Source: Neolecta irregularis DAH-3 (taxonomy: Eukaryota). Taken from it: 55,066 nt of DNA. Both the position numbers and the translations under genes were made by a program. This document shows, one piece after another, positions 1-54,893 of the stretch. The notes beneath the pieces were generated by a model. That model was given only the letters and a program-made list of their open reading frames with translations, made no database searches and had not been told where the DNA came from. Each line of letters starts with the position of its first letter. The stretch's first letter is position 1. Where the stretch lies: positions 1 to 55,066 of the forward strand of contig LXFE01000122.1 of assembly GCA_001929475.1 (NCBI GenBank), written 5' to 3'.

Positions 1-2272
1 AACAACACCACCACCGATGCTCCTTCGCGCCTGTTCGATGAAAACACCCCCTTTTCTGTTACAAGCACCTCATCAGAGCCATTTCCTCCAATATCAGAGC
101 CTCTGTCTACTACCCATGCAACTGCTGACGGCCCCGCCTTCTCTCTTCCCGTGTCCACAAACCTCCTTGACATCCAGGCTCTCTGTCTTAGCCCCGTAGG
201 TTCTCCCCCAGAAAAGTCCCTTTCCATCCAAGACGCCCAGGACAAATCGTCGCGCAAATCCAGCCAGAGTCTGAGGTTGTTTCAAGGTTCAAAGTCGAGG
301 CCTAAGCAGCCTCCAGATGGCCTTTCATCTACCCACGAGAGTACCGGCACCGTGGCGTCTGCCACATACTTTCCGCACCGCTCAAATGACAATGGAACTT
401 CTGTATCTGTATCTGTGGAGGATGACTCTGACCACGCGTCCGAGTCTGAATCCGAGGATGACACGGGTCTCGTGTCTCTAGCTACAAGTCCAAGAGCTGT
501 TCTATTAAAGTATGTAACCTGTTCAAAAAATACGACATTTGTTGTTCTGAATCTTGCGTCGCACGACATCTCGTTTTCTTTGACCTCAATGATGAAATGT
601 ATGCTAATCCGCTAGGCCGTTTGAGTCACAGGTGGGTGGACACACTGCATTATTTCGGTTCTCCAGAAGAGCAGTTTGCAAGCCTCTCGCTAAGCGCGAG
701 AATGAGTTTTATGAAATTGTCGAAGGACGTCATCGAGAATTACTCCCGTTCATTCCTCGATACATTGGCGTCTTGAACGTCAACCATAAACTTGAAGATG
801 AACTGAATACTCCGACACCCGGCAATCATTCTGTCCCGCCAACGCGATATGGCACGCCTCTGCCCGAAGTGGTTTTCGAGCAAAACAAACATATTATTCC
901 TTCCTCAATGCTCGGTTCCGAGAGAAAGGATTCCGGGACTCGATGGGGCGCCACCAGAATCAACAGCCAGCTCCAAGAACAAGTCTTGCGCGAAGTTTTC
1001 GCCCCCCTGTCAGAGCGAAAACCAATCAAACGCAAGAAGCTTGCTCGATATCTGTGTGACGAGACCAAGAGTGCGAGCACAATGGACCTCACCAGTCCTA
1101 AATTCGCTACATCTGCCGAATCACGACAGTCAAACCTTCTCCAGAAGCCGCGTCTCCATCAGAGACGATTCAGCTCCAATGAGGTGTTTGAAGATGAAAG
1201 CGAAAGGCGTGGGGATGACATGGGTGTCTTTGCAATGGACGATGAGACCGTACCGCAGCGTGAGAGATCTGCAAAAGCTCAAAATAGCCGAATATCATCA
1301 GCTCTGGATGTACCTCCAGCTGCCAAACCACGCCAAGAAATCACCTGGGCCCAGAGATGCTGGGAGCTGGAACGTGCAAAAAAAGCCAGTCAAACACTGC
1401 CCACTAATAATGGGAAACCAAAAACGTGGTTGGAACGTTTCATTCTTATCGAGGACCTTACAGCCGGAATGAACAAACCCTGTGTTCTCGATCTAAAGAT
1501 GGGGACTCGCCAGTATGGTATCAATGCTGCCGAGCAGAAGAAGAGCAGTCAACGCCGAAAATGTGCATTGACTACCAGCCGGCAGCTTGGAGTACGTGTA
1601 TGCGGCATGCAGGCAAGTAACGTTGTACGTCGTCTACTAACTATGCAGGTCTGGAATAAACATGCACAAAAGTACAAGTTTCAAGATAAATACTTTGGGC
1701 GAGATCTAAAGGCCGGAGCAGAATTTCAATCTGCATTGACGAGGTTCCTTCATGATGGAACTCCGCCTGACACCAAAGGCGATGCGAAGACGATGAACCC
1801 TAAAGGTGTTCTTGCTCATCACATTCCAAATATTCTTCGAAAGCTCAGTTCTCTGGAAAAGATCATTAAAGGACTTCGAGGTTATCGATTTTATGCTAGC
1901 AGTCTTCTCTTGCTTTACGATGGGGAGCCCAAGGAAGGAGAGAAATCAGAGATTCGGATCAAGATTGTTGATTTTGCTCATTGTGTCACGGCGGCTGATA
2001 GACTCGATGCTGCTGCTGCGCCGCCAAAACATCCAGATGACTGTGATCGCGGGTATCTGCGGGGGCTGAGGACGCTGCGTGTCTACTTTCAAAAGTAAGA
2101 TTCTAGGACTGGGGATTTGCTGCTTACCAACAGAATATGGAGGGAAGTTACAGGATTGGGGGAGATTGAACGAGGTTCTGGGGAGGAGCTGAGCAGCTGG
2201 GGATTCCGTGATGTCATTGACGAGATGGGGCCTATTGAGATTCCGGGTGACGATGGGTATGTGTCTGTTTGA
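1..2272 (+). CDS. KCS1: Inositol hexakisphosphate kinase (IPK family), 5'-partial
   Basis: Motifs PFESQVGGHTALFRF, PCVLDLKMGTRQYG, FYASSLLLLYDG, IVDFAH. Frame is open from base 1. Introns 510-615, 1613-1648 (GC-AG), 2095-2133; stop TGA 2270-2272. Confidence 0.92.
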
Positions 2273-2499
2273 GGGACAAGTCGGGGTGTAAATATGGTTG
2301 TTTGCCTTGCAGTTGGTATCAGGTGCTTGTATGATTTACGCGGCATGATAAAGGATAAATTGGTTGCAGGACATTCCAGGAGGGACGCAAAGGAGGTGGC
2401 ACCTTTTCACATGCCGTGAATGCCCTTTGTTTTCTTTCCTTGTTCAGTATGCTATCTGCCAGTATTTCTCCGTATATGGTTATGTACTAATTAATTGTT

Positions 2500-2835: not shown

Positions 2836-2839
2836 CCGT

Positions 2840-9832: not shown

Positions 9833-11263
9833 CTACTCACGTTCTTGCCTTGCAGCTTGTTCTTCCTTTTCCAGCCTCTTTAAATCTTTGATTCCTAGAT
9901 CATCTTCTTGTTCTGGAGTGCGTTCCTTCAGTAAGTTTGACCATGAAAGAAGAGATGATACGTACATAGTCCTCTATCTCCATATTCGGATCTTTATCTG
10001 GTGCATATGGATTTTGAAGATGTGATGCGGCCAGGGGATCGTCTAGAATAACTGTGAATTTTCGCTTCCCTTCCTCAGCTTCGCTCAGGCCTGCTAGGAA
10101 CGATTCCCAGCGAGCTTTCTTTTCTGGATCTGTAGAATCTGATTCTTGCGAATACACTCTGCCATATAGTTCTGAATGAACTTGTTTCAATAAACCTTCG
10201 AGTGTAGTAAATCGTCCGCCAAGAGTACCGGGATGAAGATCCAACCCCAATTCTGGTATTGTCAGAGCACAGGTTTCGCTCTATTCCATCAACCAGGAAT
10301 CTCTACCAATCTGAAACCTGCCTTCAAAATATCTCTATTGAGATCTTCGGCATCTTCCACCTTCAAAATGATCTTTCTAGCCTTATCTGGGATTGCACCA
10401 CCCGTTTTCACCTCGTTACTTCTATAGCCACAAGAATCACAGGTAGTGCTCATCAGCACAACTTCTTTGAAATGCGGAATATCGACCATCTTCATCCTAG
10501 TGTCGCAGTGATGTTCGCAGGAAGGACACTTAGCGTTAAACGTGTGAACTTCTTCGGGCATAATTTCATCAGTAGTTAGACCTAAAGCCTTATTTTGCTC
10601 GCTGCTTCTGATGTAATCAGACCGAGTGAGACCTTTGGAAGATTCTCCAGGCATATATTCAATCCAACTATTACCAGAAGGATCATCAAGTATTATCGTA
10701 TAGCGTCCATCTTGGATGAGTTTTCGACCGCGGCATAGAAATTCTTCTATTTGCTCATAGTTCTTCGGGTCTTGATGTTTCCTGAGAGTCTGTCCAGCTT
10801 CTAAGTCCTCTAGAGCGGTAGCTAAGAGACCCTCCACAGTGGTGAGTTGACCTCTTTGAGGCGGTATTTCGAGATCAAGCTCTGGAATTGTTGATGTACA
10901 TGTTTCGGATTTAACTATTTGACGGTTCAGATCTGTCTTGGAGGATGTGTTGAAGATAAACCGAGCGCCTTTCTCTTGTATGATCCCAGCATTTTTAATC
11001 TCTGAGTTTTTCAACCCTGTTACTTAGAGAACTACTGCAGTAGACTGTACCACAATGAGGACACTCAAAAGACATTAACACAACTTCACGAAAATAGGGA
11101 ATTCGTGTTAGCAGTAATTTTGTAGTTCCCTAATCAGTTAACAATCATTTTCTATGATTGTTGGTAAATTTTCGTGACAATTCATGCATAGACTCTCGAT
11201 CTCAGTAGGGTTCTCGCCGTCTGCAACGGTCTGTCCGACATCCTGGAAGAGTTCCTGGGCCAT
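9833..11263 (-). CDS. ZPR1: Zinc finger protein ZPR1
   Basis: Two ZPR1 modules: [38 protein letters not shown] and CPSC...CDSCGYRSNEVKTGG; LGGRFTTLEGLL. Four introns, including 11130-11167 (non-canonical) and 10281-10321 (GC-AG). Confidence 0.95.
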
Positions 11264-12934: not shown

Positions 12935-13661
12935 TCACGGCCAATAGAACCACTCCTTTTGGTTAAAAGAAATCGCGAAAATACACCAAAGCCTACCCAT
13001 TTCGTGACCTTTTGTCGACATATCGGGCAGTTTCCAGAATTTTGAGTGTGACAACCTATCATCTGAATTCCAGCGCAACTCTACGATTAAACTGAGTGTT
13101 GGAAAGATGTGATTTACGATACAAGAGCAGCAATGGCGGCAAGGGAAAAACACAACGTTTACCATGTTTTCCAAGCAAATTTTACAGCTTTGTGTGATTG
13201 TCGTATCATCCAATGAGTAAATAGGAGGCATCAATTGAGCCTCACGCGATCGCGGACAAGTCTGTGGTGAAGAATCGCTTCCGTTGAACAAAACAAGAGC
13301 ATTGTTTTCATCCACCGCAGGAATGTGGATCGAGATATCTTGGGTTGAGACTGTTTGGAAAAAAGAAGGAGAGGCTCCTCTAGTAGTCGGACCGACGTGT
13401 AATTCCTCCGTTGAAGACTCTACAGACTGTGGGCATATAATCCTGGAGTATATGCATACGTCGACAAGCGTCACAATATTCTCCCCATGTTTCGAGATCG
13501 GGTCTTTCAATAAAAAACGCAGGATTGCGAAGGCTGTTGTCTGAACATCGACAACATTTCCCCTGGATATCTCGTTTCTCGCAAAGTACACGACCGGCTT
13601 GAGCGCTGCAACAACGATAAAGCGTCAAGGCAGTGCTCGTTGAGGATCTTGACACAGACAT
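12935..13661 (-). CDS. C3HC4 RING-finger protein with Cys-rich N-terminus
   Basis: CKICLENMVNVVFFPCRHCCSC..C...CPICRQKV. Three GT-AG introns join a Cys-rich first exon to the RING frame. Confidence 0.7.
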
Positions 13662-16782: not shown

Positions 16783-16799
16783 GTAGAGGATTACATTGT

Positions 16800-18159: not shown

Positions 18160-18203
18160 AAGAAAGAAAACCACAACTTGTACATCTATCCGCTCCTCGT
18201 TTC

Positions 18204-38606: not shown

Positions 38607-38807
38607 TTATCCTACAGTTGGATGGACGATGATGCCTAGCATTAGCGTTTGGCCCGTGATGATTCCCCCAACATTCCACTGATGGTTTACATATATCAAC
38701 ACAACATAAATATACTTCTTTTCGCTTATTTTCACTTTATATGTTTAGAATATGGTATAAAAGGGGAATATAATAAGCCGGATGATTTAATTACATTATT
38801 CCCCAAA

Positions 38808-39822
38808 ATGCCCCCTCATAACCCAGACAAAAGACTCGGAATTATTCAAAAACATCTCGATCCGTCCCAGGATAAATCACACCTCCATAATACATTACTA
38901 GGAAAAGTCGCGATAATCACTGGGTGTAACAGCATCCTTGGAATCGGAATCGCAACAGCCCATAAATATGCCCAAAGCTGCGCAAAAGCAATATATATCT
39001 GCGACTTTGATGATTCTAATTTAGCGCAACATAAATCTGATTTGACCAAATTATATTCAAACACTGATATCATCTTCCGAAAATTCGACGCAGCTGACGA
39101 AAAGGCAGTAAAACAACTTGTAAAGTATGAATGTGTGTTAGGGTTACGATTTGATTGTTATAGGGATGTAATAAATACGTATAAAAGACTGGATATATTT
39201 TTCGCAAATGCAGCGAGAATAGGAAACTTTTTCATTCCCGATATCACGCCGGAGGAATTTATGGAAACTTTGCGTGTGAATACGTTGAGTGCATTCCTTG
39301 CAATTAAACATGCTTCTCCCGCTATGCAAGTAATATGTTCAGAAAAGAAGGATGCGGGTGGTAGTATTATTGTGACTGCCAGTGTGGCGGGATTGAGATC
39401 GGGGGCGGGGGGACCAGATTACTCTGCATCGAAAGCTGCAGTAATTAGTCTTGTACAAACTGGATCGTGGCAATTGTCAGGTACTAGAGTTCGTGTAAAT
39501 GCCATTTGTCCTGGATTGATAGAGACGGGGATGACAGAGGCAGTATTTGGTACTTCCCCGATTCCCGACGAGTTTGACTGGGAAAGAGATGGCCCGGAAG
39601 AAGGGAACCGAGGGAAAGATTGGACAGTTGAATCCGATGAAGCGGTATGGCGTAGCTTCCGAGGTTGCGAATGTGGCTTTGTTTCTTGCGTCTGAAGAGT
39701 ATACATTGGTATGATTATCATTGTTGCTGAGTTATAGGTCATCATACTGCAATTCTGGTGTGTATACAGTGGACGGAGGTCTTAGTGGTTCTCATCCTGT
39801 TGTTCCAGGCAAGTTGCATTGA
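38808..39822 (+). CDS. Short-chain dehydrogenase/reductase with N-terminal PTS2-like motif
   Basis: GKVAIITG, FFANA, TASVAG, YSASK, RVNAICPG, VDGG; RLGIIQKHL near the N-terminus. Three introns. Confidence 0.9.
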
Positions 39823-40541
39823 TCTGACTCGTCGGATTCGTCCGAGTAGTAGATTGGGAGTATATTTGAAGGGGATCGTTTAGTTGATAGTTGATCAGAG
39901 AGATATTGGTGTTTAGAGGCTTTTATTTCGACGTCAGAAGGGCATTCGACCTCTGTTTTTTGAACCTCAACGGAAGGACATTCGACTTCTATCTTTTCGA
40001 TGTAAATAGAAGGGTAGCCGATGATAGCCTTTCCCTTTAGAGCAGCAGCGAGGGTGCAAGTTTCCGGTAGTTGTGCAGACGGGCTTTTCAAGTGGAAACA
40101 GATATTTTTATTGTTCAGTTGGTCGAGAATGGGAGAGGGTTGGGATGATTTCAGACTAGTAAAGGCATCTGCAAGGGTGCACTTCTCTGAGACGCTATGT
40201 GAGAGAAATCGTGATTCGTTATTATCGATACGGACAAGCCATTCGAGAGTCCTGAGGATGGGATTTAGGGAAAAGACGGGTTTTTGTTTGAGAAGGGAGT
40301 TTTTGAGTCTGGCGGCATTGTCGATAGAGCGCTCGACGTTGAGAAGGAAGCGGTAGTCTGAATTGAGGGCTGCTTCAGAGTGCAATAATCGTTTTTCGAG
40401 AAACTGAGGCGTGCTGATGCCTGAGCAGGCGGAAGCGAGTTTATGATGGTGGACACATTCGAGCGAGCAGGAAGAAGCGAGGCAACGCGGACAGCGGTAG
40501 CGAGCAGGACGGGAACATGAAGTACACAAAGCAGTGGTCAT
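39792..40541 (-). CDS. BCD1: Box C/D snoRNP assembly factor with zf-HIT domain
   Basis: CTSCSRPARYRCPRCLASSCSLECVHHHK...CSG, DYRFLLNVER, WTLEW-like RTLEW, LKGKAIIGYPSIY. Confidence 0.82.
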   Translation of the reverse strand: MTTALCTSCSRPARYRCPRCLASSCSLECVHHHKLASACSGISTPQFLEKRLLHSEAALNSDYRFLLNVERSIDNAARLKNSLLKQKPVFSLNPILRTLEWLVRIDNNESRFLSHSVSEKCTLADAFTSLKSSQPSPILDQLNNKNICFHLKSPSAQLPETCTLAAALKGKAIIGYPSIYIEKIEVECPSVEVQKTEVECPSDVEIKASKHQYLSDQLSTKRSPSNILPIYYSDESDESDQCNLPGTTG

Positions 40542-40664
40542 GTTGATATATAGATGGTGTAGGATGGATGGATGGATTGGTTGGTAATAGATGGAAGAAT
40601 ATTTTTTGATGGTGGTGATTGTTATCACTCCCGGCTTATCAACGCTCCCTCTTCTCTCTCTTCC

Positions 40665-41796
40665 ATGTCCAACGATCAATCACAATCGCTCCGCGCGGTC
40701 AAAGATTGTCTTGCGGGCACTGGTATTTATCGCTGCTGTTTTTTCTAACCGCCAGCCGCGGGAATCGCTCAGGTGCTGAGTGGCCAGCCCTTTGATACAG
40801 TCAGTGCGTGATCTATTCGGTGCTTCTTTTCTCGTTAATTCAGAGGTCCGCCTGCAGACTGCTGCTCATTCGCAATACACAGGCACATTGGACTGTGCAC
40901 TTAAATTATACCGCTCAGACGGTTTATTAGGCTTCTACAAAGGCACTCTCACACCTCTTCTCGGTATCGGAGCCTGCGTATCCATTCAGTTTGCTACAAA
41001 CGAATACATGAAACGCTTTTTTGCCGCAAACAACAACGGCGCCCCAATGCGCCCTTCCCAGGTCACACCCTCTAACCAGACAAACTAAAAGTATTTAGTT
41101 CTACCTAGCTGGAATGGCTGCCGGTCTTGCAAATGCAGCTCTAGCAAGTCCAATCGAACATGTCAGGATACGTATGTCGCCCCTTTTGTCCCATAGCGAA
41201 CTTCTCAAGGCTTGCAGACACAATCTACCTTCTCCGGCCCTCTCGACTGTATCCGCAAAATATACTCCGCATACGGCTTGAAAGGCATCTTTAGAGGATT
41301 CTTCCCCACCGCTATCAGAGAATCCCTCGGTGCAGGGTAATTTTTGTTTTGTTTTTTGTCAACATCCTCACTCATTTATAGCGCCTACTTTTTTACTTAC
41401 GAATCCCTCGTCGCAAGGGAACTGAAAAAGGGCAAGCGACGCGCAGATATATCTTCTATAAAACTCTGTCTCTTTGGAGCATCGGCCGGTTACGCCTTTT
41501 GGCTCTCCTGCTACCCTATTGGTCACTAACTCTCCTTGCCATAACTTACTCTAGACGTCGTAAAATCGAAATTACAGACAGATTCCCTCGTTAAAGCTGA
41601 CCAGCGCTACAAATCTTCAATTGGCTGTTTTCGCCATATAATTCAAATACATGGCGTCCCAGGTCTCTTTAGAGGACTCACACCCACTTTGTATCGCCTT
41701 TGTTATTGTTGCTGCTGATTGTCCAGGTTAAGAGCTGCTCCTGTAAGTGCTGCCACTTTTATGGCATTTGAAGCTGCTATGAGAGTTCTTGCGTAG
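40665..41796 (+). CDS. Mitochondrial carrier (YMC1 or carnitine/acylcarnitine-like)
   Basis: Three carrier signatures PFDTVKVRLQ, PIEHVRIRLQ, PIDVVKSKLQ; RAAPVSAATF. Seven introns. Confidence 0.92.
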
Positions 41797-42012
41797 AACT
41801 TACATTATTTATACTGTTTCATTCACCTTATGACATTGAAGAGTCATGAGAGTTTACATACACATTTTGTATATTGTTTCATTCATCTTATGACACTTCC
41901 ACGGTTATGAGAGTATGCGTAGAACATACATTATCATCCACTTTTATGGCATTAAAAAGACTATGAGAGTTCTTACATCGATAGATTGCATACATTAAGT
42001 ATACTGTTCCAT
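41753..42012. repeat. Four degenerate ~56-68-bp tandem units derived from the carrier gene's 3' end
   Basis: ATGAGAGT core at 41779, 41847, 41907 and 41963, each preceded by TTATG(G/A)CA; ccacttttatggcatt occurs twice. Confidence 0.8.
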
Positions 42013-42150
42013 TTAAAATCACTAAGAAATCACTAAATCTTTCTCCAATGCATCTGGTGGGACATTTCCCCGGATTTTATCAAACGGAATCATACCATCC
42101 TCACGATTCGTCATACCCATGAATCACCTGTCTATTCTACATACCCAATC

Positions 42151-42941
42151 ATGATTCGAAATAAAATGAATAGTCACATCCGATCAGTTTCAACATTTCC
42201 CCAGCCAACAATTGATACCCCGAAAAATATCAAGCTAAATTATCGCAGTATACGAACAGTTTCAACAACACCCTGGCCAACGATCGATAATCCTTCACCC
42301 TACCAAGTCTTTGGTTTGCCACCAACTTCTAACCAAACAGAAATCAAACGGAGGTATAGTGGTACATCTACTCACCGCTGATTACATGGTACTATGATCT
42401 AGCGCGTTTATACCATCCAGATCACCAATCGTCACGTAAATACACGGGACGCTTTCAGAAAGTAGCAGAGGCATATGAATTGCTATCCGATCCACGTCGT
42501 CGAAAAGCTTACGATAAATTTGGAATAGGATGGCCTAATACAGCGAGAAATACTACCAAGACACCTCCTTCTTTTCATCACCAAAAAGAGATCTATAAAC
42601 AGTGGTATGGATATCAATATGATGCCTTTTATGCAAATAAAGAATCAACTCAACGTCCCCCACCTTCATCAAATAATACGGTATTCATAGTTGGATTTAC
42701 TTCTTTTTTCCTCTGCGGTTTAATTTTATCGTTTCGGTATGGTGGACCTACCTTAATACAAGAAGCAGCCAACAGACAACATGCGAAATCTGCGTTGAAT
42801 TGGCAGATTGCGCAGAGTGAGGCCAAGAGGTTGTATACCAAGAAAAAACACGTAGTGGGAAAAGAGATTGTGTCTTGTGTTTTTACGGATGGTGAGGATG
42901 GGGTTTGTAGGAGTTGTGGGATTGCAAATGGAGTTTATTGA
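42151..42941 (+). CDS. J-domain protein, probably mitochondrial (Jid1-like)
   Basis: PYQVFGL, EIKRR-YYDLARLYHPD, RFQKVAEAYELLSDPRRRKAYD, C-terminal TM segment. One intron. Confidence 0.85.
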
Positions 42942-43130
42942 TCTTTTTGTTAGGGGGTATCCGTAGGGGCGCTGGATTTCACGTATGATATCATTGTCTA
43001 AAGTATCATCACTGTACATATCAGGCTCTGTTATCTCGTGCTTGAAGATCGTGATATCATTTGCTTGGAGCCTGATTTTGATCATTCGCTTGGCGATAAT
43101 ATCTACCCCAGTAGAGATATTAAGCCACAG

Positions 43131-43844
43131 TCAAAGAATGAGTTTTGCATGCATTACACGATACATATTCCATTTCACACATAAATCATCTGTATATCCA
43201 ACCCGTTCAAAAAGCAATTCAGCTCTTACACCTCCTAAACGTCGAATTTCATTCAAACGAAAATTAAACAGATTAACGAAATCGTTTAAAACCTGATGAT
43301 TTCGAGAATCAAATGATGTACCAGGATACGAGCATGTCATTAGTGGAATATCCAATTTTGAGCCATCGTTATTAACGCCCGACAAGTAGAAATTGTATAC
43401 TTGAAGTATGATGTCTGTGATTGCTTTATAGCCCGGTGGTTGAACGTATACGAATGGATATTGTAATAGAATTCCAGCGATCGTGGGGTATCGATGTATA
43501 TCTACCGGGGGGATATTAATAATTCCAACACCCAAAACACAATCTTTTATTCCCTCGAGAACTTGTAGTGCCCAATTTGGAATTTCCAGAGATATCTCAA
43601 GGGTGGGCAAGTAGATTATCGACGATCTGACACGATCATTAATAACCTCTCGCACCAATTCCACATTCACGATTAATTTATCATCACAGCCAAGACAAAG
43701 GATACACAAGGAAACCTCCAAAAATGTCGAAAGTTCAACTAGAAATGGTTTTAAATGCTCAATGCCGATTCGAATATCTAGCATATACGCATTCCTAAGT
43801 CCGCAGATGACAGGTATTATCCCTTGAAATGTCAATCGCGCCAT
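43131..43844 (-). CDS. Uncharacterised protein, DUF4504/C1orf74-like
   Basis: Intronless 237-aa ORF. GLRNAYMLD and PTIAGILLQYPFVY resemble my recollection of that family. Confidence 0.55.
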   Translation of the reverse strand: MARLTFQGIIPVICGLRNAYMLDIRIGIEHLKPFLVELSTFLEVSLCILCLGCDDKLIVNVELVREVINDRVRSSIIYLPTLEISLEIPNWALQVLEGIKDCVLGVGIINIPPVDIHRYPTIAGILLQYPFVYVQPPGYKAITDIILQVYNFYLSGVNNDGSKLDIPLMTCSYPGTSFDSRNHQVLNDFVNLFNFRLNEIRRLGGVRAELLFERVGYTDDLCVKWNMYRVMHAKLIL

Positions 43845-44111
43845 ATTTTCAAAAGATGACCTTGAAGTAATTCACATTGCGCTTTATATGACAAAACTCG
43901 ACGAGGGATTTTAGAGGCACTTTGGCGGAGGTAGTCGAGTACCGAAGCTGGCATTGGCGAAAACGTCGGTGGTAATATTGATAAAATATGTTCCGCGCGA
44001 AATGTAAAGTACGCGCAGTCAGTCCATCCGCCCGTCGAAGAGATCTGAGCCGCCTGCCCCCCCCGTTTCTTTTCTACGTCTCATCAAAGGCAGACAGAAT
44101 CCCGGCCTTTC

Positions 44112-44257
44112 AGACAGTAGCAACCTGCGGGTGTCAAGCGCCCACGTATAGATTGATCGGCAACTTCTTCTTTTTACATCCGACCAATCAGTTATCCGGC
44201 AGTTCAGAAAGTGCGACCTGCTAGCTTGGCACACATAGGCAAATGTTGCTATTGGTC
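44112..44257. ncRNA. Candidate structured RNA (nested multi-stem); identity and strand unknown
   Basis: Stems 44115-44124/44245-44254, 44131-44139/44224-44232, 44151-44160/44180-44189, 44199-44205/44215-44221. Confidence 0.3.
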
Positions 44258-44673
44258 CAATTTTAAGCATTGATATCGATGGGCACGGTCACACATACAA
44301 AGCCATGACCCTGTACTATGCAATGGTAAAATTAACAGACTGTTCTGCAACAGCAGCCTACGTATTACGTTTCTTCATCAAGAACTATGTAGATGTGTTT
44401 CGCATTTCCAAAACACTGACGGCTTTCCTTTTTTTCCGAGACAGGAAGGATTAAATAATGAAAGCCGGATACGGTACTATTCTTGGCGACTTCTATAAAG
44501 TGGCTTGGTGCCACGAGGGAGAAATGTTTTACCCGACTCTCTTCACTAATTATTTCAAGTTCTTTTTCTGAAGTGTCCCCCCCTACAGCGGATTGTGTTA
44601 ACCAAAGTCTAAACGTTTATTCCACATTCCGTTTGCACTCACCTTACATTAAGCAGTCCATTTACCCTATTTT

Positions 44674-46018
44674 ATGTTGCCTAAGCTCTTTTGGTCGATC
44701 CTGCTTCATCCCAATCTCCTTTGCGCTGCATCATATCTCGATAATTTCTCAAAAGTTCTAGATGCAAGCGAATTTTATGCTCAACATTTTGAGGACCATG
44801 GGGCTTTCCGCGTGAAATGTGTACAACAAACAAATATTTGTGCAGAGCAATGTTTTTTGGACAAGTATTTCTGTAATTCGTTCAGCGTAGTCTTACACGA
44901 CTCAACCTTGTATTGTCATCCATCCGAGATACAAGTCCGGGATATCACTTTGGATGATATGCCAACCAGTTATACTGTGATAACACTCTTTAAGTAAGCA
45001 TTTGTGACAGTACGGAAATTGATAATTTAGTATCAAGGAACCAAGAAATAAAGTTGTAGATGAGCTTTCTCGCAATGAAGGATCCATGGAAGAGTGGACC
45101 GATGAGATTATAAAGGGATATTCACTATCAGCACAGGAAAATTTCTGGAAACCTTTTTTGCTTGGCTGCAGGAACTCTGCATTGAATGGACCACCAGCAA
45201 GTGCAGTCGATTTTAAGGGATGGCTTGAGCGAAATGGTGTTCTCTCAGCTGCCCGTGATACAGGAGAGCCAAAGAACAAACGATTCAAACCCTCTCCGGA
45301 AGTAGCCCAAGAATACAAGACTTCGATCGCCGAAGAAATCAGCGTTGGCCTCAAATCATGGTCAGGTTATAGAGGGTCTTCAGATTTGTTTGACATAATG
45401 GCGCTGACTTTTCTCGATATATTCAGTCACAACATTGTTGGTCAAGCCTTCACTACTCTTTTTGATCCAATAAGGAAGTCTTTGTTTATCCATGGAGAAA
45501 ACCTTTACCTTTTAATCGTTTCAGATGGCAAAGGATATTACGTTATGATACACGATACTTCCGTTCAAAATTTCGCTCTAAATATCCCATCAATATATCA
45601 AACGGGTTTCAAACAGGGTATCCCGTACGAATCTGCGTGGGAAATGTTTGAAGGAGCTGTGCATATTCTAGACAACCAGGCGAAACTTACCAAACCTGTA
45701 ATACCACATCGGTTCAGTTTAGAGTACGATTATGGTAATAAGAAATCGGCGTTAGATGTTGTATTTCAGGCGACACATATTCTTCTGCAGCCTACAGGAT
45801 TCGGCGATGATGCAATCTATTCCAAAGACACTAGAAGCCGGAAATGTCTTAGCGACATGATGACATTAGTGCTCTCTCGAGTATATGGGAAGAACATGAG
45901 ATCCACTCTAGCTCAATCTCGATCATTGGAAAGCAAGGTGCGAAAGGATTTTAGAGAAAGCATGATTGATATTATTACTTTCCAGAGACCATCCTCCCAA
46001 ATAGGTAATGGGACCTAG
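44674..46018 (+). CDS. Orphan ~435-aa protein, putatively secreted, with N-terminal PAN/apple-like Cys motif
   Basis: A GTAAGC...TAG intron at 44994-45030 joins ORFs 44674 and 45086 in frame. Hydrophobic N-terminus; CAEQC.....FCNSF......LYC. Confidence 0.7.
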
Positions 46019-46985
46019 ACGAGGTTTATTTTGGTATATTTTGTATGCATGTTCAGATTGGTTTTCTTTTTTCAGTGGGAGATTATTACTGGGTTATAAG
46101 ACCACTAGCTAATATCAGGCTATTGTGTTTAAATGCAATCAATCTACAGGGCAGGGAGGCGATCCAGAGTGAGGTGACGTTTCAATCATTCCTACAACGA
46201 TCATTTTGATTTTGGCAGACCATCATTACTTTCACCTTGGGATTTTGAATCCAACTATGGTTATTTCCATTGAATCTCTCCAGTGGTCTTTGTTCTGGGA
46301 ATTGATTTCCATTTCTTGCCAACATCACTTTAGAGATTTGGCATGGCCGCATGGATCATGAGAAATTGTTAAATTACCCTAGGTGATTATATGAATATGT
46401 GAAATATACTTATCTTTAGTCTTTACTCTTCTTTCTCCGTGTCCCTCCTCCTGTCTCACTGTTCCTGTAAGTCTGTGTTCAGTACACAAATCTTGTGTTA
46501 GGCGAACCCATACTATATAGGCTTACAGTAATCCGGCATCGCAAGCCTTGTCCCCTGACTGGAGTCCTTTACTACCACTACCGTTGTGCTCAAGGTTCTT
46601 CATTTTCTTGGAGTCGATGGTCTGCTTACTCCAGATATATTCGATATATTTATAACAGGATCATCTTGGAAAATTTCAGCACGGTGATATGCGTGCATAA
46701 TATTCAAATGCTGTTTCGTTTGATCAGGTAGGCAGAAATGCTCAATATCAAATGGAAATCCTTTAGAATTTAAAACACACAAACGAACTCCTAGTTCTGA
46801 AAATAACTGGTAAGATGACAAGCAGATCTGACAAAGCAGAGTAGGAGAATCCAAGCCATCTGCTGGCTAGAGTCTAGAAAGGACCTCCTTGACAATTGTG
46901 GCATGTGTGATATTCCTGGCGAAGAGGGTGTTGAGAACTAAACAATTATAGGATAATCTTAAATATCTGTTGGTTTAGTACACTG

Positions 46986-48006
46986 TTACATATCCTCGGT
47001 AGACCATCCGTACGCCTACAATCAGTAGAGCTTGCGAAGAGAGAGAACATACCGCTTCTTCCCGAAGCTTTACTTCATTCTGCTTTGTGAAATATTGTTT
47101 TTCAAACCCATTTGAGCGATCTACGCCGTCCCAACGATACCCAGGCAAAACTCCAAACCGATTTGGCATAGAAGCGCCCTTGAATGTTGACTCTGTATTG
47201 GCCTTTCCGTCTTTGGTTTTGCCTTTGGTACTGAGAAATGAAGCGGCGGGATCATTCCAACGTTCTCGGGATTTAAGTTCTTCATTCATTACGATATCAT
47301 CTACTGTCCTGAATAATTAGACCCACGGTTTACTTTTGAATCATACCGAGCAAACGGCACGGCTTTGATCTCTTGAAGCTGCTTTCGCCGTTCTTCCTTC
47401 TCGCGCTGCTGAACCACACCCATTCCTAATTCTTTTTCCTTCTTTTTCCTGGCTTCTTCGGCTTCGAGTTTCTTTCTGGCTTCGGCTCTTTGAAGCGCAA
47501 CATCCACCCGTCGTCCCGTAGCATCACGATAAATGGTCTCCGCACCTCGTCCATTCATAGTCGGGTCCTCTTTCATATACCTCCTTCTATCCTCGTCTTG
47601 TTGTTGCGCTAGATTACGACTCACTTGTTCGGCTGTATGTAACCCCATAACAGTTCTCAATTCATCAGTATCTTGTCCAACGATCTCTGGTTGCTCGTCG
47701 TCGGCAATCTTTTGACTTTCTTGAACAGTTTCCCAATTCGAACGCTCCGCAGCGGCAAAGGATTTTGGGTTTGCCGAGTCTAAAGCATTCTCGACTACAA
47801 TGTTTAAAGTTTCATTCTTTGATTTGAAACTCACGAACTACTGCATCCTCCACATCGTCTTGACCTCCGCTATGAACGACCTCCCATCCCATAGCTTCAT
47901 TATCATCGATCCTCAGAGCACTTTCTTCTTCCTTCTTCCTCCGCTTTTTCTTCTTTGGATCGTCCTTTGTCAAATAATTCTTCGCTAGATAGTCCGCCAG
48001 AGACAT
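46986..48006 (-). CDS. BUD13: Pre-mRNA splicing factor Cwc26/Bud13 (RES complex)
   Basis: [53 protein letters not shown]. Three introns. Confidence 0.95.
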
Positions 48007-48126
48007 TTTGAAGGCGAAAGGGTATGTTTAGTTGACTATAACCTGAGTCACGGGATCTTCGCCAAGATTGTTCCTCGATAACAATACCGCCAAATAAAAT
48101 TTTACCCTTGGAGCTTGTGTCATTAT

Positions 48127-49082
48127 ATGGGGAAACGAAGACAGGAGGTGGGTCAGTCTCAGAATAGTAGTGAAGAGAGTGGGGATGATGGAAAAGAGAT
48201 GAACGTTGATGAAGTCGAAACTGTTAATATCGATTTCGAATTTTTCGACCCAGAGGAAATCGATTATCATGGAATTAAGAATCTTCTCAAACAGCTCTTA
48301 GGAGCTTACTCGGATCCGATAGATATTTCTGCGTTGACGGATCTGATAGTGAAAGATTCTCTCGGGTCTACTGTGAAAGTGGATGGAAAAGAGAGTGATC
48401 CATATGCATTTCTGACTGTACTAAGCTTACAGAAAAATTGGGTACGACAGCTACTTGCAAGAATAATTGTTCTCACAGAGATAGAATAATCCTGGAATTC
48501 AAAAACTCTCTCAATATCTTCTCGAAAAATCTAAAGCTGAAACAAACATCTATGGGAAGCTGTCACAGTTGATGACAGCAGATTCAAAGTTTCAACTCGG
48601 TCTGATTTTCACTGAACGTCTGATAAACATGCCTCATGAAGTTGCTCCGCCAATGTATAGAATGCTTGTGGAGGATATTAACAACATTGTGCAAGAGGCA
48701 TATCGCTTGGATTAACTCTCCTGATTTATTTAGGATGAACAATACAAATTTGACTATTACTTGATTATTTCAAAAGCCTATGTTGAAGTTGACATTGCCA
48801 AACCCGGGAAAAAGAAAAAGAAGACCAAGGTATATCTATCAATAAAAGTGATTTGCTTTGACATGTTAGACACAGAGTGAAAATGCAACAGGTTTCTTCC
48901 ATATGGAAGATGCTCTATTCCAGAAGAACTCAATTGCATCATTATTTTATCCTTGTACCATTTCTGGAAAAGACTCTGTCCTACAAGAAGTTGGGATTAA
49001 GCCTCAAGGCTGTCTAATATTGATAAAGAACGAAGAAATGTTGAAATGCATCACAGAGTTGCAAACTAAATGGAGTGTTTAG
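48127..49082 (+). CDS. BCP1: Bcp1/BCCIP family protein
   Basis: VNIDFEFFD, DYHGIKNLLKQL, GSTVKVDGKESDPYAFLTVL, ERLINMP.EVAPPMY. Three introns. Confidence 0.93.
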
Positions 49083-49205
49083 TACTCCAACAAACCTGTA
49101 TGCTCAGATAATGTATATTTAGCGCCGAAAAAGCAGAATACATGCAAAAGATAAACCCGCAAATAACCTGTGAGATGCAGAAGGATTACGAATAAATATG
49201 CAGTC

Positions 49206-51508
49206 TTACCCAACGACCCATGCTCCTACATTTCCATCTCTCCGGCCCTCAATCATATAGCCCTCCTTACAACGAACGCAATCAATGGCAACAATTGAGG
49301 GAGCTCCTTCTTCCTTTTCTATTCCTGGCCCAACCATCCAGTGTCGACCATCGGAGCGATCGTAAACCCTAACAACATCGGTTCCAGTTGCCGAAACTAC
49401 TCGGCGAGAATCGAAATGCAGTGACTCTACACCTTGATCATAGGTGAATGCGTCATATATAGTGCCCATGCGCAGATCCCATATCTTCTCATTAGCTTGT
49501 ATCATCTATTACACGTACCCGTATGCTCTTGTCTAGACTCCCAGTAATCATATGGATTTCGTCAAACTGCAGACAGGTAATGGGTCCAGTATGTCCGGCA
49601 AGCGTCCGATGGATTTGACCGCTTCGTACTATACATTCAGTGTCTTGACTTGCACTTTGTGCTTACAGTCCCATAAACGAACCATGCCGTCCGCAGTGCC
49701 GCTAGCGAGAGCGGCATCATAGCATTGAAGGGCAGCGACAAAAGGCGACTCGACACGTCTGCCTGCACCAAAACCAATCTGGCCAATCCTATCTTCACCA
49801 AGAGGACCTGCAGAAGACTGAGCAGCAGCCCAGAGCACGTCAAGAGTCTGAACACATCTCCCTGTAGATATATCCCATTGCCGAATCGTTTTGTCAGATG
49901 ATCCCGATACGAGCGTATCTTTATGAAAGTGAATAGCAGTGACTTCGTCAACATGAGATTTGAATTCGTAAAGACAGCAATCCTGAGTAGAGGCAGACCG
50001 ACTAGCATTGTAGGAAAGGTATGAGGAGTGACCACTCGTAACACTCGAACTATCTTCCTCGAAAGCTGAATCTGATTTGTTGATAAGATTGTGAATAGCG
50101 CTGGGGGGTGCAACAGGTCCTATGTCCATTGAGCTAATATCCCACAGACGTATTGAAGCATCTGCGGAGCCAGTCACAATGAAAGAATCCTCCATCTGTA
50201 AAGCTCTTACTGAAGCTAGATATTAGTTGAGTTTCGAATATCGTCCCAACCTTTGTGTCCTTCTAATTGGCCAATACATCTTCCTGCGCTAAGATTCCAA
50301 ACCCGTACGGTATCATCCATAGAAGAAGTAACCATGTAACCAAAAGGCGAATCAAAATCAATTGCTATAATAGAGTCCTCGTGCGTTTTCCAGGACTAAA
50401 TATGAAATCAGCTCAGTAGAAAAGAAACCCTCGTACGTTGAGTTTTGAACCAGCTTTAGAATGCTCATGCAAAACTGGTGCAGATTTCCTCCCTGAGAAG
50501 TAAGCAAGATAATTCAGTACCAGAGTTGTATATACGCAGAGCTCTCCGTTTACGAGCCTTTGAACTATTGCTCTTACAGTATATACTATCCGACATAAAA
50601 CCCATTGTAGAGTTTGCCGACTCCAGAGAGATTCCGGTTTCAACTTCAATCTTCTCAAGCTCTTCCAGTTCTTGTGCATCGGCAATCCTCATTTCGATGT
50701 CACGAAGTTGGGTTTCGAATTCATTTTCTGCGGTTTCAAATTTAGCCAGTCGTTCGAGAGCACTATTCCGTAGAGCGGTCAATACGTTGAGTTTGGCATC
50801 GACATCCTTAATTTCAGATAGCACCAATGCCTGAGCAGAGAATTAACGATGACAAGTCGAGTGTAACCACGTACCTTTCGTACACCTGCCACGTGAAGAT
50901 CATGCGATATGTGATCTTTTTCCTTGTAAAATTTCGTTATTTCCGAGTGCCTGCTTTGACCATTTGCTTTGGTAAATTGAGCTCTCTCTGTGATATACTA
51001 ACGTACCATTGGGACTCTGTAGATCTTGCGCTTCATTAAGTAATTTACCCATAGAAGAACGCGATTTTGGGGATCTGTACTTTTTTAATTCTTTAATTTC
51101 TGGGAAGGTTGCTTTAAATCCATCCAGAAGGGAATACTGTAGATCATCCACATCGGGAATATCGAACAAGAGGTCATCAGGAAGATAGGTAATTGCACGA
51201 AAGTTTATATCGCTGGGAGATAGGGTCGATCTGATGAGCTCCGTCGGGGAAGAAGCCGACAACATTCGTTTCTGAATCCCAGGTCTCTTAAGCTGTGGGG
51301 CTATCTGGGCCATGTGCTCGTGATATACTTTTGGAGCAATCTTTTTCGATATAGGTGCCAGCCAGGCTGAAGTTTGGGAAGACACCGTCTGTCCGAGAAA
51401 AGACAGGCCAAATTTTACCGCGGTAGTCGCTTTTTCGGCAGTTAAATTTACTGGGTTGTTGTCATCGAGCATAGAGGCGATTAATTCAGATCGGTTATGT
51501 GCAGACAT
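49206..51508 (-). CDS. MDV1: Mitochondrial fission adaptor, coiled coil plus WD40 (Mdv1/Caf4)
   Basis: [23 protein letters not shown], coiled coil, [37 protein letters not shown]. Seven introns. Confidence 0.9.
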
Positions 51509-52472
51509 TCAATTCGAGATGATACTGTGGACATCAAGTATATGCCGTCGAAAATGCAGTTTGCTCGATATTCCTCTGTACAGATATCGTTGTCGCTAGA
51601 TCTTGGTGTCGTGTCGTTTGGGCTCTGGTGTAAATGGCGGTTGCTTTAGTGGGCATTCGACATCTCGATTTTAATTCAGAACAAATTCGCATCCAACTAA
51701 ATTGCCAGAGACGTGACTCTAGCATGATTGTAAATGTTCCTGTATATTATCGACTTCTTGGCCTTGGTTTCGTCTTGTAATAGAAACAGATCTTGCCAAT
51801 TGCAACCTCGGTGACCGTTTGAAATTTGCCACCTATTCTGACAGTATGACACAAGGCTGGAATACAGATGTATATTGCTGATATCTATGCAAGATAGATT
51901 TATAGACTATTACAGCTACCGAGATCACTTAGTTCTCAGTCCGCGTCTTGGTCATTTGTACGACTTCCTCCATGACAACAAAGCTCATGTCGAAAGGTAA
52001 CTCTCATTTATCATCTGCTATCTTGACACTCAATCCTACGTTCCTCCTCGGAAGATTCGGATGGTCTTTGTTATCTTTTCTATCTCTCCCACTTCACTCC
52101 ATTCGTTATAGCCTTTTGTTCTTACATTGCTTTACTGGTCCTTTCGTTCCTTTCGTCCGTTATGCAATTCAGGGTTATACATCTCCTCAAAGATGGATGC
52201 GACTAAAATAAATTTCCGAGACATGTCCCAAGCCTGAGCAAGTTTAAGCATCTCTGATATTTCGGATGCTGTGATTTGAGCAAAGCAGCATAGTTCAAGT
52301 GTTTAATGTTGGAGGCAGTACACATTCTTCCAAGAATTTGTATGATAGGTTTATCCTCGTCATATATATTACGTGCATCAGACATCCAAAAATCCATTCC
52401 CAAATTACCTCCTCCCTACCAACTCGCGAATCTATTCCCGGATCTATTTAAGCGAGACGCTCGATAAATTCG

Positions 52473-54893
52473 ATGATTCTTACAGGGTCTTCTGGGAACT
52501 ACCGCAATTCTGTATGCGGTTATTTACCTATTGAGAACTACGGTTTAATCGGGAATCTCAGAACCGCCGCTCTGATTGGAATCGATGGATCTTGCGACTT
52601 TCTGTGTCTCCCCTATTTTAGTTCCCCTTCAGTATTCTGCAGATTGCTAGATAAAGAAAAGGGAGGTTACTTCAGTATCACACCGTTACATGAAACCACG
52701 TCGAAACAGCAGTATTTGCCATCAACTTGCATTCTCGCGACCAAATTCCTCAGCGAAGAAGGAGTATCGCAAATCACAGACTTCTTTCCTCGACCTGCGA
52801 AATGTGGAGAAACGTTATTCCCTTGGATGGTTCGGAGAGCCGAATGCATACGCGGTGATGTTACGCTCAAGGTTGAGATATTCCCTGCTTTCGATTACGC
52901 TCGTGCCAAGCATGATCTTACAATGTCGAATGGAAAGATTTTATTCTGGAGTGAAGATGCCCAAACAGGTCTAGAATTATCTTATTTAGCAGAGGACAAC
53001 GAGGAAGAGTGTAATCCCGAAGTCAATTTTGGTATGAGGCAATCCATGTCTTTAAATCAGCCTAAGACCTTGTAGAAGTTGTTTCCCAAAAAGGGCTTCT
53101 TAGTGCGGGTGCTATAGCCCATATTACTCTCACAGAAGGTCAAGCAGTAACATTTTCTATACGTATGTTCAACATCGTTTTGCGTCCTCATGTAAAGGTC
53201 AACTCCATACCCCGTCCAGTCAGCCAGAAGCGCATCTTTCTGAAAAATTAGTTCAAAAGCTACAAGCAGATACTCAAACCTACTGGGGGGCTTGGATTAT
53301 GAAATCAAACTACAGAGGCCGATGGCAAGAGTTCATCATTCGATCGGCATTGACGCTCAAACTTCTTACGTTCGAGCTCACTGGAGCAGTCATTGCATCA
53401 CCTACATTCTCGCTTCCTGAATCAGTATCAGGAGCTAGGAACTGGGATTATCGATATACTTGGATTCGAGATAGCGCTTTTACAGTTTATGCATTTCTCA
53501 GACTGGGATTTATCGAAGAAGCAGATGCTTATATGAAATGGATCGAAGGTCGTATGGAGCATCGGAACCCAGTTGGCGACGAACGCGGCCCTATTAACAT
53601 CATGTACACAGTATGGGGGACTTCAGATATCGAGGAACATGAGTTGAGTCACCTTGAGGGCTATAAGTCGAGTGCACCCGTAAGAATTGGAAATGGCGCT
53701 AGCGAGCATCTTCAGTTGGATATTTATGGGGAACTGATGGATGCCATCTATCTCTATCATCGAGTGTGTATCAGCAGTTAATCTCAATTCTAACTGACAA
53801 GCTCGGGCGTCCGATCAGTTATTCTATGTGGTGCCACGTTCGGGTTCTCTGTGATTGGTGCTTTCATTTGAGAGATGTATGAAGGCTAAATGCAACAGGG
53901 TTGTGGACAATTGGGGAAGAGGAGATATGTCTATTTGGGAAGTAAGGTCCCAAAAGATGGTGTGCCTTCCTCTGGTGAATGCTGACGGGTGACCCTAGAA
54001 GCAGTTTACGTATTCGAAAGTGATGCTGTGGGTAGCTCTCGATCGGGGTCTTCGACTTGCTGACAAGAGATCGTTCCCATGCCCACATCGTCATATGTAC
54101 GCTTGGTCGTGGATTTCTCTGACAGTAGATGGTTGAAGACGCGAGATACGATATATGAAGTTATAATGACAAAAGGCTGGAATGAGAAGATGAATGTGCA
54201 TCTTCTCATGCTATACTAAAGCTTACTTGCAGTGCTTCATACAAGCTTTCGAAGAGCCCGAGATTTTAGATTCTGCAGTTCTTAGTATATTCCTAGCCTT
54301 TATTCCGCTGATAGCAGTTATGCCGCTTGTCTTTTTCATTTCTCCCAATGATCCGCGGTTTGTCTCTACTATCAAGCAGATTTTAAAACCACCCGAGAAA
54401 GGCGGGTTGACTTCCAATGGCCTAGTATTCAGGTGTATGACACTAGATTGAGCAAAACCTTGACACAGCAGATAATCATTTGAGGGCCCATGACGGTGTG
54501 GGAGGAGGAGAAGGAAGTTTCTCGATGTGCACATTCTGGCTAGTCGAAGCTATGACCAGAGCAGGTCAATATGACCGGGAGATGCTTGCAGCCGCAGTTC
54601 GCATGTTTGAAGATATGGTATGATCAGCTGACTTTATTGTCGTTCATGATTAGTTGGGCTATGCGAATCATTTATTCTTATACAGTGAAGAGATTGCACG
54701 AAGTGGAGAAAGTTTAGGGAACTTTCCTCAAGCCTTGTGAGTTATACTTTTGCTTTTTTTTATCAGACTAATGGGTTTGCAGCACTCATATCGCGTGTAT
54801 TTCAAGTGAGAGTTCTTTCTGAATTATTGTCTAACAGAAACAGCGGCATTTAACCTTGATCGAGTGCTGAGTGGCATTCGACGAGCTGATTGA
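52473..54893 (+). CDS. Glycoside hydrolase family 15 (glucoamylase/trehalase-like)
   Basis: [75 protein letters not shown]. About 12 introns; 5' end uncertain. Confidence 0.92.

Follow-up and report, generated by a model that had tools for sequence, protein, structure and literature searches.

Are the tiny introns of Neolecta irregularis DAH-3, an early-diverging ascomycete, held to terminal GT and AG, or can the splicing machinery of this fungus accept other ends? The question is raised by a single 55,066-nt contig, the whole of which forms the window analysed here. A sequence-only reading of this window had counted about 120 introns, eleven of them without GT-AG ends, and had proposed a length-guided spliceosome tolerant of changes at both terminal dinucleotides. 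The curated set comprises 108 introns across 29 genes: 97 are GT-AG, six are GC-AG, and TT-AG, GA-AG, GT-GG, AT-AC, and GT-TG are represented by one intron each. GT-AG or GC-AG ends are thus found in 103 of the 108, with five exceptions. The earlier total was of the right order, and its eleven non-GT-AG introns were re-derived with the same count and classes. Non-GT-AG ends are far commoner on this contig (~10%) than on average in fungi, and a change at donor position +2, to GA or GC, is tolerated in vivo.

Eukaryotic genes are densely packed on both strands of the window, which has a G+C content of 43–47%, standard stop codons, and uninterrupted open reading frames (ORFs) of 600–800 codons. 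A self-trained dynamic-programming gene finder applied to the whole window merged and split genes; it was unstable because codon bias is weak, and it was replaced by gene-by-gene modelling. This combined three-frame views, exhaustive enumeration of frame-compatible junctions, per-gene dynamic programming, and direct reading of the DNA, and the models were further anchored by Pfam profile coordinates, PDB structure alignments, and homologue alignments. The per-gene dynamic-programming models were amended from the DNA reading at the TBC junctions, at false internal introns of GH15, and at the DnaJ junction. For each odd intron, canonical alternatives were enumerated between distant, coordinate-defined anchors. 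At the level of the whole window, CTAAC showed no enrichment as an intron signal. Of the 108 introns, 19 are seen in transcript-like contigs, 66 are fixed by conserved protein sequence, and 23 are model-only; a few introns at 5′ ends, in untranslated regions, and in unmodelled genes were omitted.

Introns with and without GT-AG ends

The introns form a narrow size class with a median of 37 nt (interquartile range 35–40 nt, n = 108) and a minimum of 31 nt. Indeed, 105 of the 108 fall within 31–45 nt, the range in which the earlier reading had placed most of them, and the donor is ambiguous in the sole long outlier (106 nt). Lengths divisible by three occur in 29 of the 108, among them 1613-1648, 21579-21611, and 39125-39163. 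Donor positions were counted in 95 GT-AG introns, and hexamers and branch motifs in 106 introns. Position −1 is G in 53/95, and the bases counted at the following positions are A at +3 (60/95), T at +4 (41/95), G at +5 (47/95), and T at +6 (44/95), corresponding to 0.42, 0.22, 0.29, and 0.14 bits, respectively. With a sum of ~1.07 bits over four positions, a weak consensus is confirmed where the donor had been called nearly unconstrained. The preference for a GTRAGT-like donor, complementary to U1 and U6, is likewise weak, and 67 different hexamers occur in the 106 introns. Five of the six hexamers quoted earlier as examples were recovered, namely GTGCAG in APP1, GTTCTC in an asparaginase-like gene and GH15, GTTCAA in Rho, GTTGAT in ZPR1 and Rho, and GTCACT in the mitochondrial carrier; the sixth, GTCGTG, is absent, the nearest form being GTCGTT.

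The branch site is the second feature of this size class. A strict YTRAY motif lies 4–22 nt from the 3′ end in 60 of the 106 introns, compared with 14% of random 38-mers, and looser variants are present in all but four. The distance from the branch A to the 3′ end has a median of 8 nt and a mode of 7–8 nt, a tight spacing that bears out the statement that the branch lies only a few nucleotides from the acceptor, and the branch A itself lies at a median of 28 nt from the 5′ end. In 54 of 61 introns, the 3′ end used is the first AG at least 4 nt past the branch A.

All 11 non-GT-AG introns are 32–41 nt long and therefore belong to one size window, as had been claimed. Ten of them carry a branch-like motif 4–9 nt from the end, as in the majority; in the eleventh, a doubtful intron of a RING-finger gene, this distance is 20 nt. 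Every odd end is one substitution away from GT-AG, except AT-AC, which is two away. In annotated fungal genomes, the proportions are 98.715% GT-AG, 1.009% GC-AG, 0.019% AT-AC, and 0.257% others, according to the part of the survey available to us (PMC7072748). Relative to these averages, the binomial tail is P = 8e-4 for six GC-AG introns, P = 1.4e-5 for the five others, and P = 1.7e-7 for the 11 taken together (of 108). More cautious counting gives P = 0.024 for four GC-AG introns and P = 0.0035 for three others (GA-AG, TT-AG, and the SSP120 intron).

Two sequencing runs, X1 and X2, neither of which is recorded as RNA, were compared with positions 11001-31000 of the window. X1 yields long contigs with a word depth near 400 that show 0 other letters and 0 gaps in this region and are unbroken over the TT-AG, GA-AG, and GT-GG sites and three GC-AG sites. 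An assembly error, which had been named as a possible refutation, is not supported at these sites. The contigs of X2 carry 51 joints that are lacking in X1, in a region with about 45 curated introns; because of these joints, X2 behaves like a transcript assembly. Its exonic pieces show 0 differences from the window. Among the 15 of 51 joints listed, 14 match curated introns exactly: every intron of ARP3 (six) and of SmF (three), together with five from two unnamed minus-strand genes. The one left over is an 84-nt skip of complex form (18521-18604). A further five boundaries are marked by piece ends or loose ends in X2 (ZPR1 intron 2, ALG2 intron 3, mitoribosomal S5, TRM2 intron 5, and LCB3 21579-21611).

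Transcript junctions, the check proposed with the original claim, gave a direct answer for two odd introns. In ARP3, an X2 contig links 15738 to 15776, with 37 nt skipped and record positions 472 and 473 adjacent; the joint ends are GG..TA with 1 nt of slack, which is equivalent to GA..AG. This GA-AG junction restores a conserved stretch of the protein, and the site lies inside the X1 genomic contig 12232-16589 with 0 other letters. In an unnamed minus-strand gene, an X2 contig links 16944 to 16977, with 32 nt skipped and plus-strand ends CT..GC. Both the GA-AG intron and this GC-AG intron (16945-16976) are removed exactly.

The remaining rare-class introns were placed by protein colinearity. 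In ZPR1, which together with ARP3 had been singled out as a housekeeping gene with an odd intron, the TT-AG junction was found again as the sole in-frame solution preserving CMNCHEN/GTTKLLL, and blind enumeration between the anchors returned neither a GT-AG nor a GC-AG alternative. Across the junction, the protein stays colinear with P0122 (...SLCMNCHENGTTRLLL...), a relative of 88% identity; 30 of 32 residues of exon 1 are identical to it, joined at HEN/GTT. The X1 contig 11001-12200 is identical to the window here. A search of a protein collection for X2-derived proteins returned just annotation proteins and this one relative. For intron 1 of the SSP120-like EF-hand gene, enumeration gave no GT-AG or GC-AG solution. 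Three readings were obtained, AT-AC, AA-AG (41 nt), and GA-AG (44 nt), of which AT-AC alone yields DEETEFDIHH and thereby the E found invariantly in eight homologues.

The GT-GG and GT-TG introns are the least secure cases because canonical alternatives exist. In the LCB3-like phosphatase, the GT-GG reading yields GRIYCGLHGFL/DIFAGSAIG, which is colinear with six of six homologues (GRIYCGMHGFLDVIxGS, with D invariant). A high-depth X2 contig must also span this site; a joint there is not among the 15 of 51 listed. In the DnaJ-domain gene, the match of the upstream ORF to the Pfam DnaJ profile stops at position 20 to 22, that of the downstream ORF starts at 21, and the GT-TG junction reads IKRR/YYDLARLYHPD.

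Among the GC-AG introns, two of the TRM2-like tRNA methyltransferase are closely defined. At intron 1, the frames are joined by GC-AG solutions only, apart from one 19-nt GT-AG, and the X1 contig is identical to the window. Intron 4 is the sole near-canonical solution and gives FPAG/SFFQNNN, which presumably matches the family motif. For intron 2 of the inositol polyphosphate kinase (IPK), human IPMK chains are gapped by 12 residues exactly opposite the segment 1613-1648, and the GT-AG alternatives are merely 24 or 27 nt long.

Public protein models are wrong in all three odd-intron genes checked (9833-11263, 21115-22590, and 32177-32820, all on the minus strand). The annotated ZPR1 (P0121, 375 residues) begins within exon 2 and lacks the first ~50 residues, so that half of the first zinc finger is lost. 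In the phosphatase, the annotated 50-nt intron (21972-22021) removes SILAGRIYCGLHGFL, and the protein P0241 has NLHFEDIAKPL in place of this catalytic segment. The stored SSP120-like protein (P0306, 148 residues) runs through the intron to a stop and lacks the conserved C-terminal half.

Recognition of the introns and competing explanations

These are probably ordinary introns of the major spliceosome in an extreme short-intron regime, with terminal dinucleotides that are less constrained than usual. Recognition would rest on the whole intron as one unit, with contributions from a weak donor (G/GTA.g.) and a loose, YTRAY-like branch kept ~28 nt past the 5′ end and 7–8 nt short of the 3′ end; this geometry, i.e., length together with branch distance, may compensate for the missing consensus. 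The narrow distributions suggest a length or distance ruler. From colinearity we infer that the TT-AG, AT-AC, GT-GG, and GT-TG introns are spliced as modelled, in which case tolerance would extend to donor position +1 and the 3′ dinucleotide. Of the length-guided, tolerant spliceosome proposed earlier, the size class, the weak signals, the non-GT-AG excess, and the +2 tolerance have held, and the remainder we can only infer. A stronger form is a tentative possibility: the major spliceosome might place both cuts mainly by geometry (the branch A ~28 nt after the 5′ end and the 3′ cut 7–8 nt after the branch A), with several per cent of ~20,000 introns lacking GT/GC or AG and still being efficiently spliced. 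If true, this would make Neolecta the first fungus to depart systematically from the GT/AG rule, with non-AG 3′ splice sites picked by their distance from the branch.

Several points weigh against these readings. The finding rests on one contig, a single 55-kb sample of a 14.5-Mb genome, and on one RNA-proved rare-class intron; taken alone, this intron gives no significant excess (P = 0.26, relative to the partly available averages of PMC7072748). Among the 15 of 51 RNA joints listed, one of the five rare-class introns (GA-AG) and one of the six GC-AG introns are represented, and the odd introns of SSP120, DnaJ, IPK, and BCP1 fall outside 11001-31000. X1 may be the assembly's own data, in which case it is not independent and excludes assembly slips only. 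Three GC-AG assignments are open to challenge: the 36-nt IPK segment, in frame and without a stop, could be coding; the GC-AG call in BCP1 is weak, as it scores nearly equal to a 45-nt GT-AG intron; and the call in the RING-finger gene is weak as well, with an unconserved N-terminus and a 31-nt GC-AG alternative. Homology itself can mislead through the choice of anchors, as in a misreading of the taspase-like gene. Finally, yeast work leads one to expect that 3′ ends other than AG serve the second step of splicing very poorly.

Partial mis-modelling is an unlikely explanation, albeit one to be taken seriously. It holds that the tiny introns and a modest GC-AG and GA-AG excess are real, whereas GT-GG, GT-TG, and perhaps AT-AC (versus GA-AG) are artefacts of forced colinearity, the cell using nearby canonical sites or making slightly different proteins. 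Indeed, in-frame canonical introns can be drawn in LCB3 (20 nt at 21957-21976, or 50 nt at 21927-21976 with the good pyrimidine-rich acceptor TTTTTGCAG) and DnaJ (41 nt at 42362-42402 and 44 nt at 42359-42402), the SSP120 junction has its three readings, BCP1 can be read as GT-AG, the taspase call needed correction, and the gene finder was unstable. These options have their cost, however. The 20-nt intron of the phosphatase adds six residues, and the 50-nt intron loses DIFA, including the invariant D; the former is far shorter than any intron of the set (minimum 31 nt), and the latter is longer than all but one. In DnaJ, the alternatives shorten helix II of the J-domain by two or three residues relative to the Pfam profile. 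ZPR1 and SSP120 offer no GT-AG or GC-AG alternative at all, and the GA-AG intron proven in X2 is equally odd.

The other explanations place the anomaly in the individual, the data, or the machinery. Recent damaging mutations (TT, GG, TG, and AT/AC) in a field-collected individual or lineage, with poorly spliced introns in genes heading to loss, are improbable. Odd ends that, except for AT-AC, are one substitution from GT-AG would fit such an origin, as would exons left unjoined by the annotation (P0121, P0241, and P0306), and flanking exons that have not yet decayed make colinearity unable to discriminate. Yet five inactivating hits within 55 kb in conserved genes (ARP3, ZPR1, sphingoid-base phosphatase, J-protein, and SSP120) are implausible, the ARP3 intron is spliced, and annotation pipelines restricted to canonical ends would presumably miss such introns anyway. 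Moreover, X1 does resolve minor variants: 60-nt side contigs with one differing letter occur at three places, including 12202-12261 and 16560-16650, exactly at breaks of the main contigs and at a depth of 8–41 versus ~400 (2–10% relative). Had the odd sites carried a second allele, it would therefore probably have been visible, and none was seen in X1 at those within 11001-31000. Sequence error hiding a genuine GT-AG genome is the least probable of all. Differences of a single base and an assembly N50 of only 16 kb leave some room for it, but coverage is 199-fold, with DNA and RNA both sequenced (PMC5309816, in the portion available to us), the ORFs of 600–800 codons are intact, the exonic pieces of X2 agree with the window, and X1, re-assembled by another pipeline, shows no differing letter or gap. 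As X1 probably derives from the same read set, systematic read errors remain compatible with this agreement. A different removal mechanism, be it the U12 spliceosome (for AT-AC), editing of the RNA back to GT/AG before splicing, or euglenid-like structure-guided excision, is hardly more credible. The TT-AG intron holds a perfect 9-bp hairpin or inverted repeat (z = −4.47, 0/200 shuffles) and the GT-GG intron a 7-bp hairpin (z = −2.27), and nothing comparable was found on folding five GT-AG control introns. Internal hairpins occur in just these two of the five odd introns, however, and the GA-AG and AT-AC introns are without structure. When the five odd introns were folded with 15-nt flanks, the junctions were never paired (z from −1.96 to +0.99); general structure-guided excision is not supported because the flanked folds do not bring the junctions together. 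U12-type introns have an extended conserved donor box and a branch box near the 3′ end. By inspection against the U12 consensus, the SSP120 AT-AC intron has neither U12 box; its sole branch-like motif, TTGAT, lies 8 nt from the end, a spacing like that of U2-type introns. In size and in branch spacing, moreover, all 11 odd introns are like the GT-AG majority.

Feature catalogue and side observations

The introns are collected in Table 1. Several GT-AG introns in 38682..54893 are model-only.

Table 1. Introns of the window, non-GT-AG introns first, followed by the GT-AG introns of each gene
Gene and intron	Strand	Position	Ends and length	Remarks
ARP3, intron 3	+	15740..15776	GA-AG, 37 nt	donor GAAAGT; branch-like CTTAT 7 nt from end
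ZPR1, intron 1	-	11130..11167	TT-AG (modelled), 38 nt	donor TTACCA; perfect 9-bp internal hairpin
LCB3-like (dihydrosphingosine-1-phosphate phosphatase), intron 3	-	21939..21976	GT-GG (modelled), 38 nt	donor GTAAGA; branch CTAAG 8 nt from end
SSP120-like EF-hand gene, intron 1	-	32398..32438	best modelled as AT-AC, 41 nt	donor ATAAGC
DnaJ-domain gene	+	42354..42388	GT-TG (modelled), 35 nt	donor GTATAG; branch CTGAT 7 nt from end
unnamed gene	-	16945..16976	GC-AG, 32 nt	donor GCATGT; branch CTAAC; X2 joint
inositol polyphosphate kinase (IPK), intron 2	+	1613..1648	GC-AG, 36 nt	donor GCAAGT; branch CTAAC
TRM2-like tRNA methyltransferase, intron 1	+	26526..26562	GC-AG, 37 nt	donor GCATAC; X1 contig identical
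TRM2-like, intron 4	+	27306..27338	GC-AG, 33 nt	donor GCAAAT; branch CTAAT
BCP1/BCCIP-like, intron 2	+	48698..48733	GC-AG, 36 nt, or GT-AG, 45 nt (48689-48733)	model only
RING-finger gene, putative first intron	-	13598..13631	GC-AG, 34 nt, doubtful	model only
ARP3 (gene 15278..16783)	+	15310-15347, 15372-15405, 15981-16018, 16415-16447, 16652-16686	GT-AG	all five X2 joints
SmF (Sm-like; gene 17789..18150)	+	17800-17837, 17911-17950, 18069-18101	GT-AG	X2 joints
two unnamed genes (16929..19330)	-	17473-17506, 18258-18291, 18376-18413, 18665-18699	GT-AG	X2 joints, CT..AC on + strand
ZPR1 (gene 9833..11263)	-	11017-11050, 10253-10293, 9926-9965	GT-AG	X2 loose end at 11050 fits exon 3 sequence
LCB3-like (gene 21115..22590)	-	22441-22478, 22269-22305, 21579-21611	GT-AG	last one 33 nt, in frame; X2 piece end 21577
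IPK	+	510-615, 2095-2133	GT-AG	donor of 510-615 ambiguous
APP1	+	3921-3952	GT-AG	
LRR gene	-	8003-8045, 6072-6109, 5951-5988, 5671-5710	GT-AG	
chorismate mutase	+	9011-9052, 9308-9343, 9604-9641	GT-AG	
ALG2-like	+	11379-11416, 11534-11570, 12031-12070	GT-AG	intron 3 supported by X2
RING	-	13081-13117	GT-AG	
taspase-like	-	15092-15128, 14993-15027, 14761-14795, 14640-14678, 14272-14307, 14122-14163	GT-AG	
Rho GTPase	+	22877-22914, 23004-23041, 23240-23280, 23416-23450	GT-AG	
DAD1	-	23948-23983, 23848-23884	GT-AG	
mitoribosomal S5	-	25049-25083	GT-AG	X2 piece end 25082
TRM2-like	+	26660-26697, 26822-26857, 27830-27865	GT-AG	X2 piece end 27866
TYW2-like	+	31108-31148, 31641-31671	GT-AG	
SSP120-like	-	32278-32313	GT-AG	
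AGC kinase	-	34542-34578, 34331-34367, 34170-34204, 33857-33891, 33715-33752, 33388-33421	GT-AG	
TBC/RabGAP	-	36753-36801, 36527-36565, 36380-36415, 36219-36255, 35914-35949	GT-AG	
SDR	+	39125-39163, 39550-39586	GT-AG	
mitochondrial carrier	+	40723-40755, 40804-40843, 41062-41098, 41172-41209, 41337-41381, 41522-41554, 41691-41732	GT-AG	
gene at 44674	+	44994-45030	GT-AG	
BUD13	-	47795-47834, 47309-47346, 47016-47052	GT-AG	
BCP1	+	48442-48484, 48830-48869, 49082-49122	GT-AG	
MDV1/CAF4-like	-	50967-51006, 50831-50874, 50493-50535, 50396-50436, 50216-50250, 49629-49666, 49485-49518	GT-AG	
GH15	+	53032-53066, 53163-53197, 53766-53801, 53844-53884, 53960-53998, 54097-54138	GT-AG	
GH15 (continued)	+	54196-54232, 54285-54317, 54435-54468, 54618-54653, 54737-54782, 54812-54843	GT-AG	

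Two candidates were rejected. A frameshift in the taspase-like gene was ruled out by a canonical 35-nt GT-AG intron (14761-14795) that joins the ORFs; alignments with human taspase 1 (PDB) stop at chain residue 131 and resume at 133–134, 43 residues into the next ORF. A predicted 31-nt first intron of mitoribosomal S5 (25953-25983) is contradicted by an unbroken X2 piece (25082-25989). The only splicing-related genes in the window are SmF (17789-18150, plus strand) and BUD13 of the RES complex (46986-48006, minus strand), both with ordinary GT-AG introns and conserved protein sequences.

The X2 contigs hold further observations. Single contigs span neighbouring genes on both strands, at 15405-21577 and 27866-30628 (7842 and 4246 nt), and the genes crossed are ARP3, the two minus-strand genes, SmF, a PPR gene, and the phosphatase gene; because single contigs cross several genes, neighbouring transcripts must overlap in this compact genome. 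The region 16950-17700 is G+C-rich, is open in several frames on both strands, and contains a minus-strand gene with two RNA-supported introns and no Pfam match. The 84-nt skip at 18521-18604 on the minus strand retains 16 other letters between its sides and would fit two ~34-nt introns around a 16-nt micro-exon of an unnamed minus-strand gene. In a long UNC45/She4-like ORF, an X2 contig skips 33 nt at 29626-29658, with plus-strand ends CT..AC; on the minus strand, this segment reads as a GT-AG intron (GTAATT...CTAAG...CAG). Two readings fit, an antisense transcript that has been spliced or a sense-strand CT-AC intron that keeps the frame, and the same contig also carries plus-strand introns of the TRM2-like gene.

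Comparison with known systems

Generally, short U2-type introns of fungi are recognised by intron definition. The introns described here resemble them in their GT...YTRAY...AG layout, their short distance from branch to 3′ end, and their setting in an intron-rich genome with a standard code. They differ in forming a tighter and smaller size class (median 37 nt, interquartile range 35–40 nt) and in a donor that carries only ~1 bit past the GT. Their ~10% non-GT-AG ends also contrast with the average of 1.3% in fungal annotation (PMC7072748, available part). The lineage is intron-rich, with 4202 introns for Neolecta in an orthologue set, as reported in the accessible part of that study (PMC7940399).

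The six GC-AG introns and the one AT-AC intron without U12 boxes are akin to the known GC-AG and U2-type AT-AC classes. In AT-AC introns, the first and last bases change together, and this pairing is tolerated in yeast and mammalian genetics. GC-AG introns account for 4–6 of 108 on the contig, compared with the usual ~1%. Such introns are usually said to compensate by a strengthened donor consensus, whereas the donors found here (GCATAC, GCAAAT, GCATGT, and GCATAT) show no strengthening, with the exception of GCAAGT in IPK.

For GA-AG, the nearest parallels are the RNA-supported introns of Oikopleura dioica and Eurytemora affinis (PMC7072748). The ARP3 intron shares with them an otherwise ordinary short form, an A after GA, and RNA support. 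In the available part of the same paper, the two animals have more GA-AG than GC-AG introns and a conserved upstream AG, whereas Neolecta has one case with an upstream TG, and no GA-AG class is reported there for fungi. In tunicate genomes with mostly non-canonical introns, 95% of the introns depart from the GT/AG rule, and changes in U1, U6, and U2AF are described, according to the accessible text of PMC13326754. As in these genomes, the major spliceosome of Neolecta could have evolved to accept rule-escaping introns, although on this contig they amount to only ~10%. No published treatment of Neolecta splice-site dinucleotides was found in the sources available; the main text of the genome paper lacks the words intron, splice, splicing, and canonical, and its supplements may hold intron statistics.

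If the relaxation is genome-wide, Neolecta would provide a natural fungal system with a relaxed GT/AG rule in a conventional, intron-rich ascomycete phylogenetically near Schizosaccharomyces pombe, and it would make testable how splice-site choice is divided between terminal dinucleotides and branch-point spacing. The annotated genes of this much-used "living fossil" genome would then be faulty at every non-canonical intron, as they are on this contig in ZPR1, the phosphatase, and SSP120, and such errors spread to comparisons of gene content and to work on how introns are gained and lost. Annotation and transcript-mapping filters that admit canonical ends only would hide such biology in other tiny-intron genomes as well.

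Ciliate and nucleomorph introns are likewise tiny and fall into very narrow length classes, and they are described as keeping GT-AG almost strictly. As in those systems, the narrow lengths in Neolecta suggest a minimum-size or ruler constraint, to which this fungus appears to add relaxed ends.

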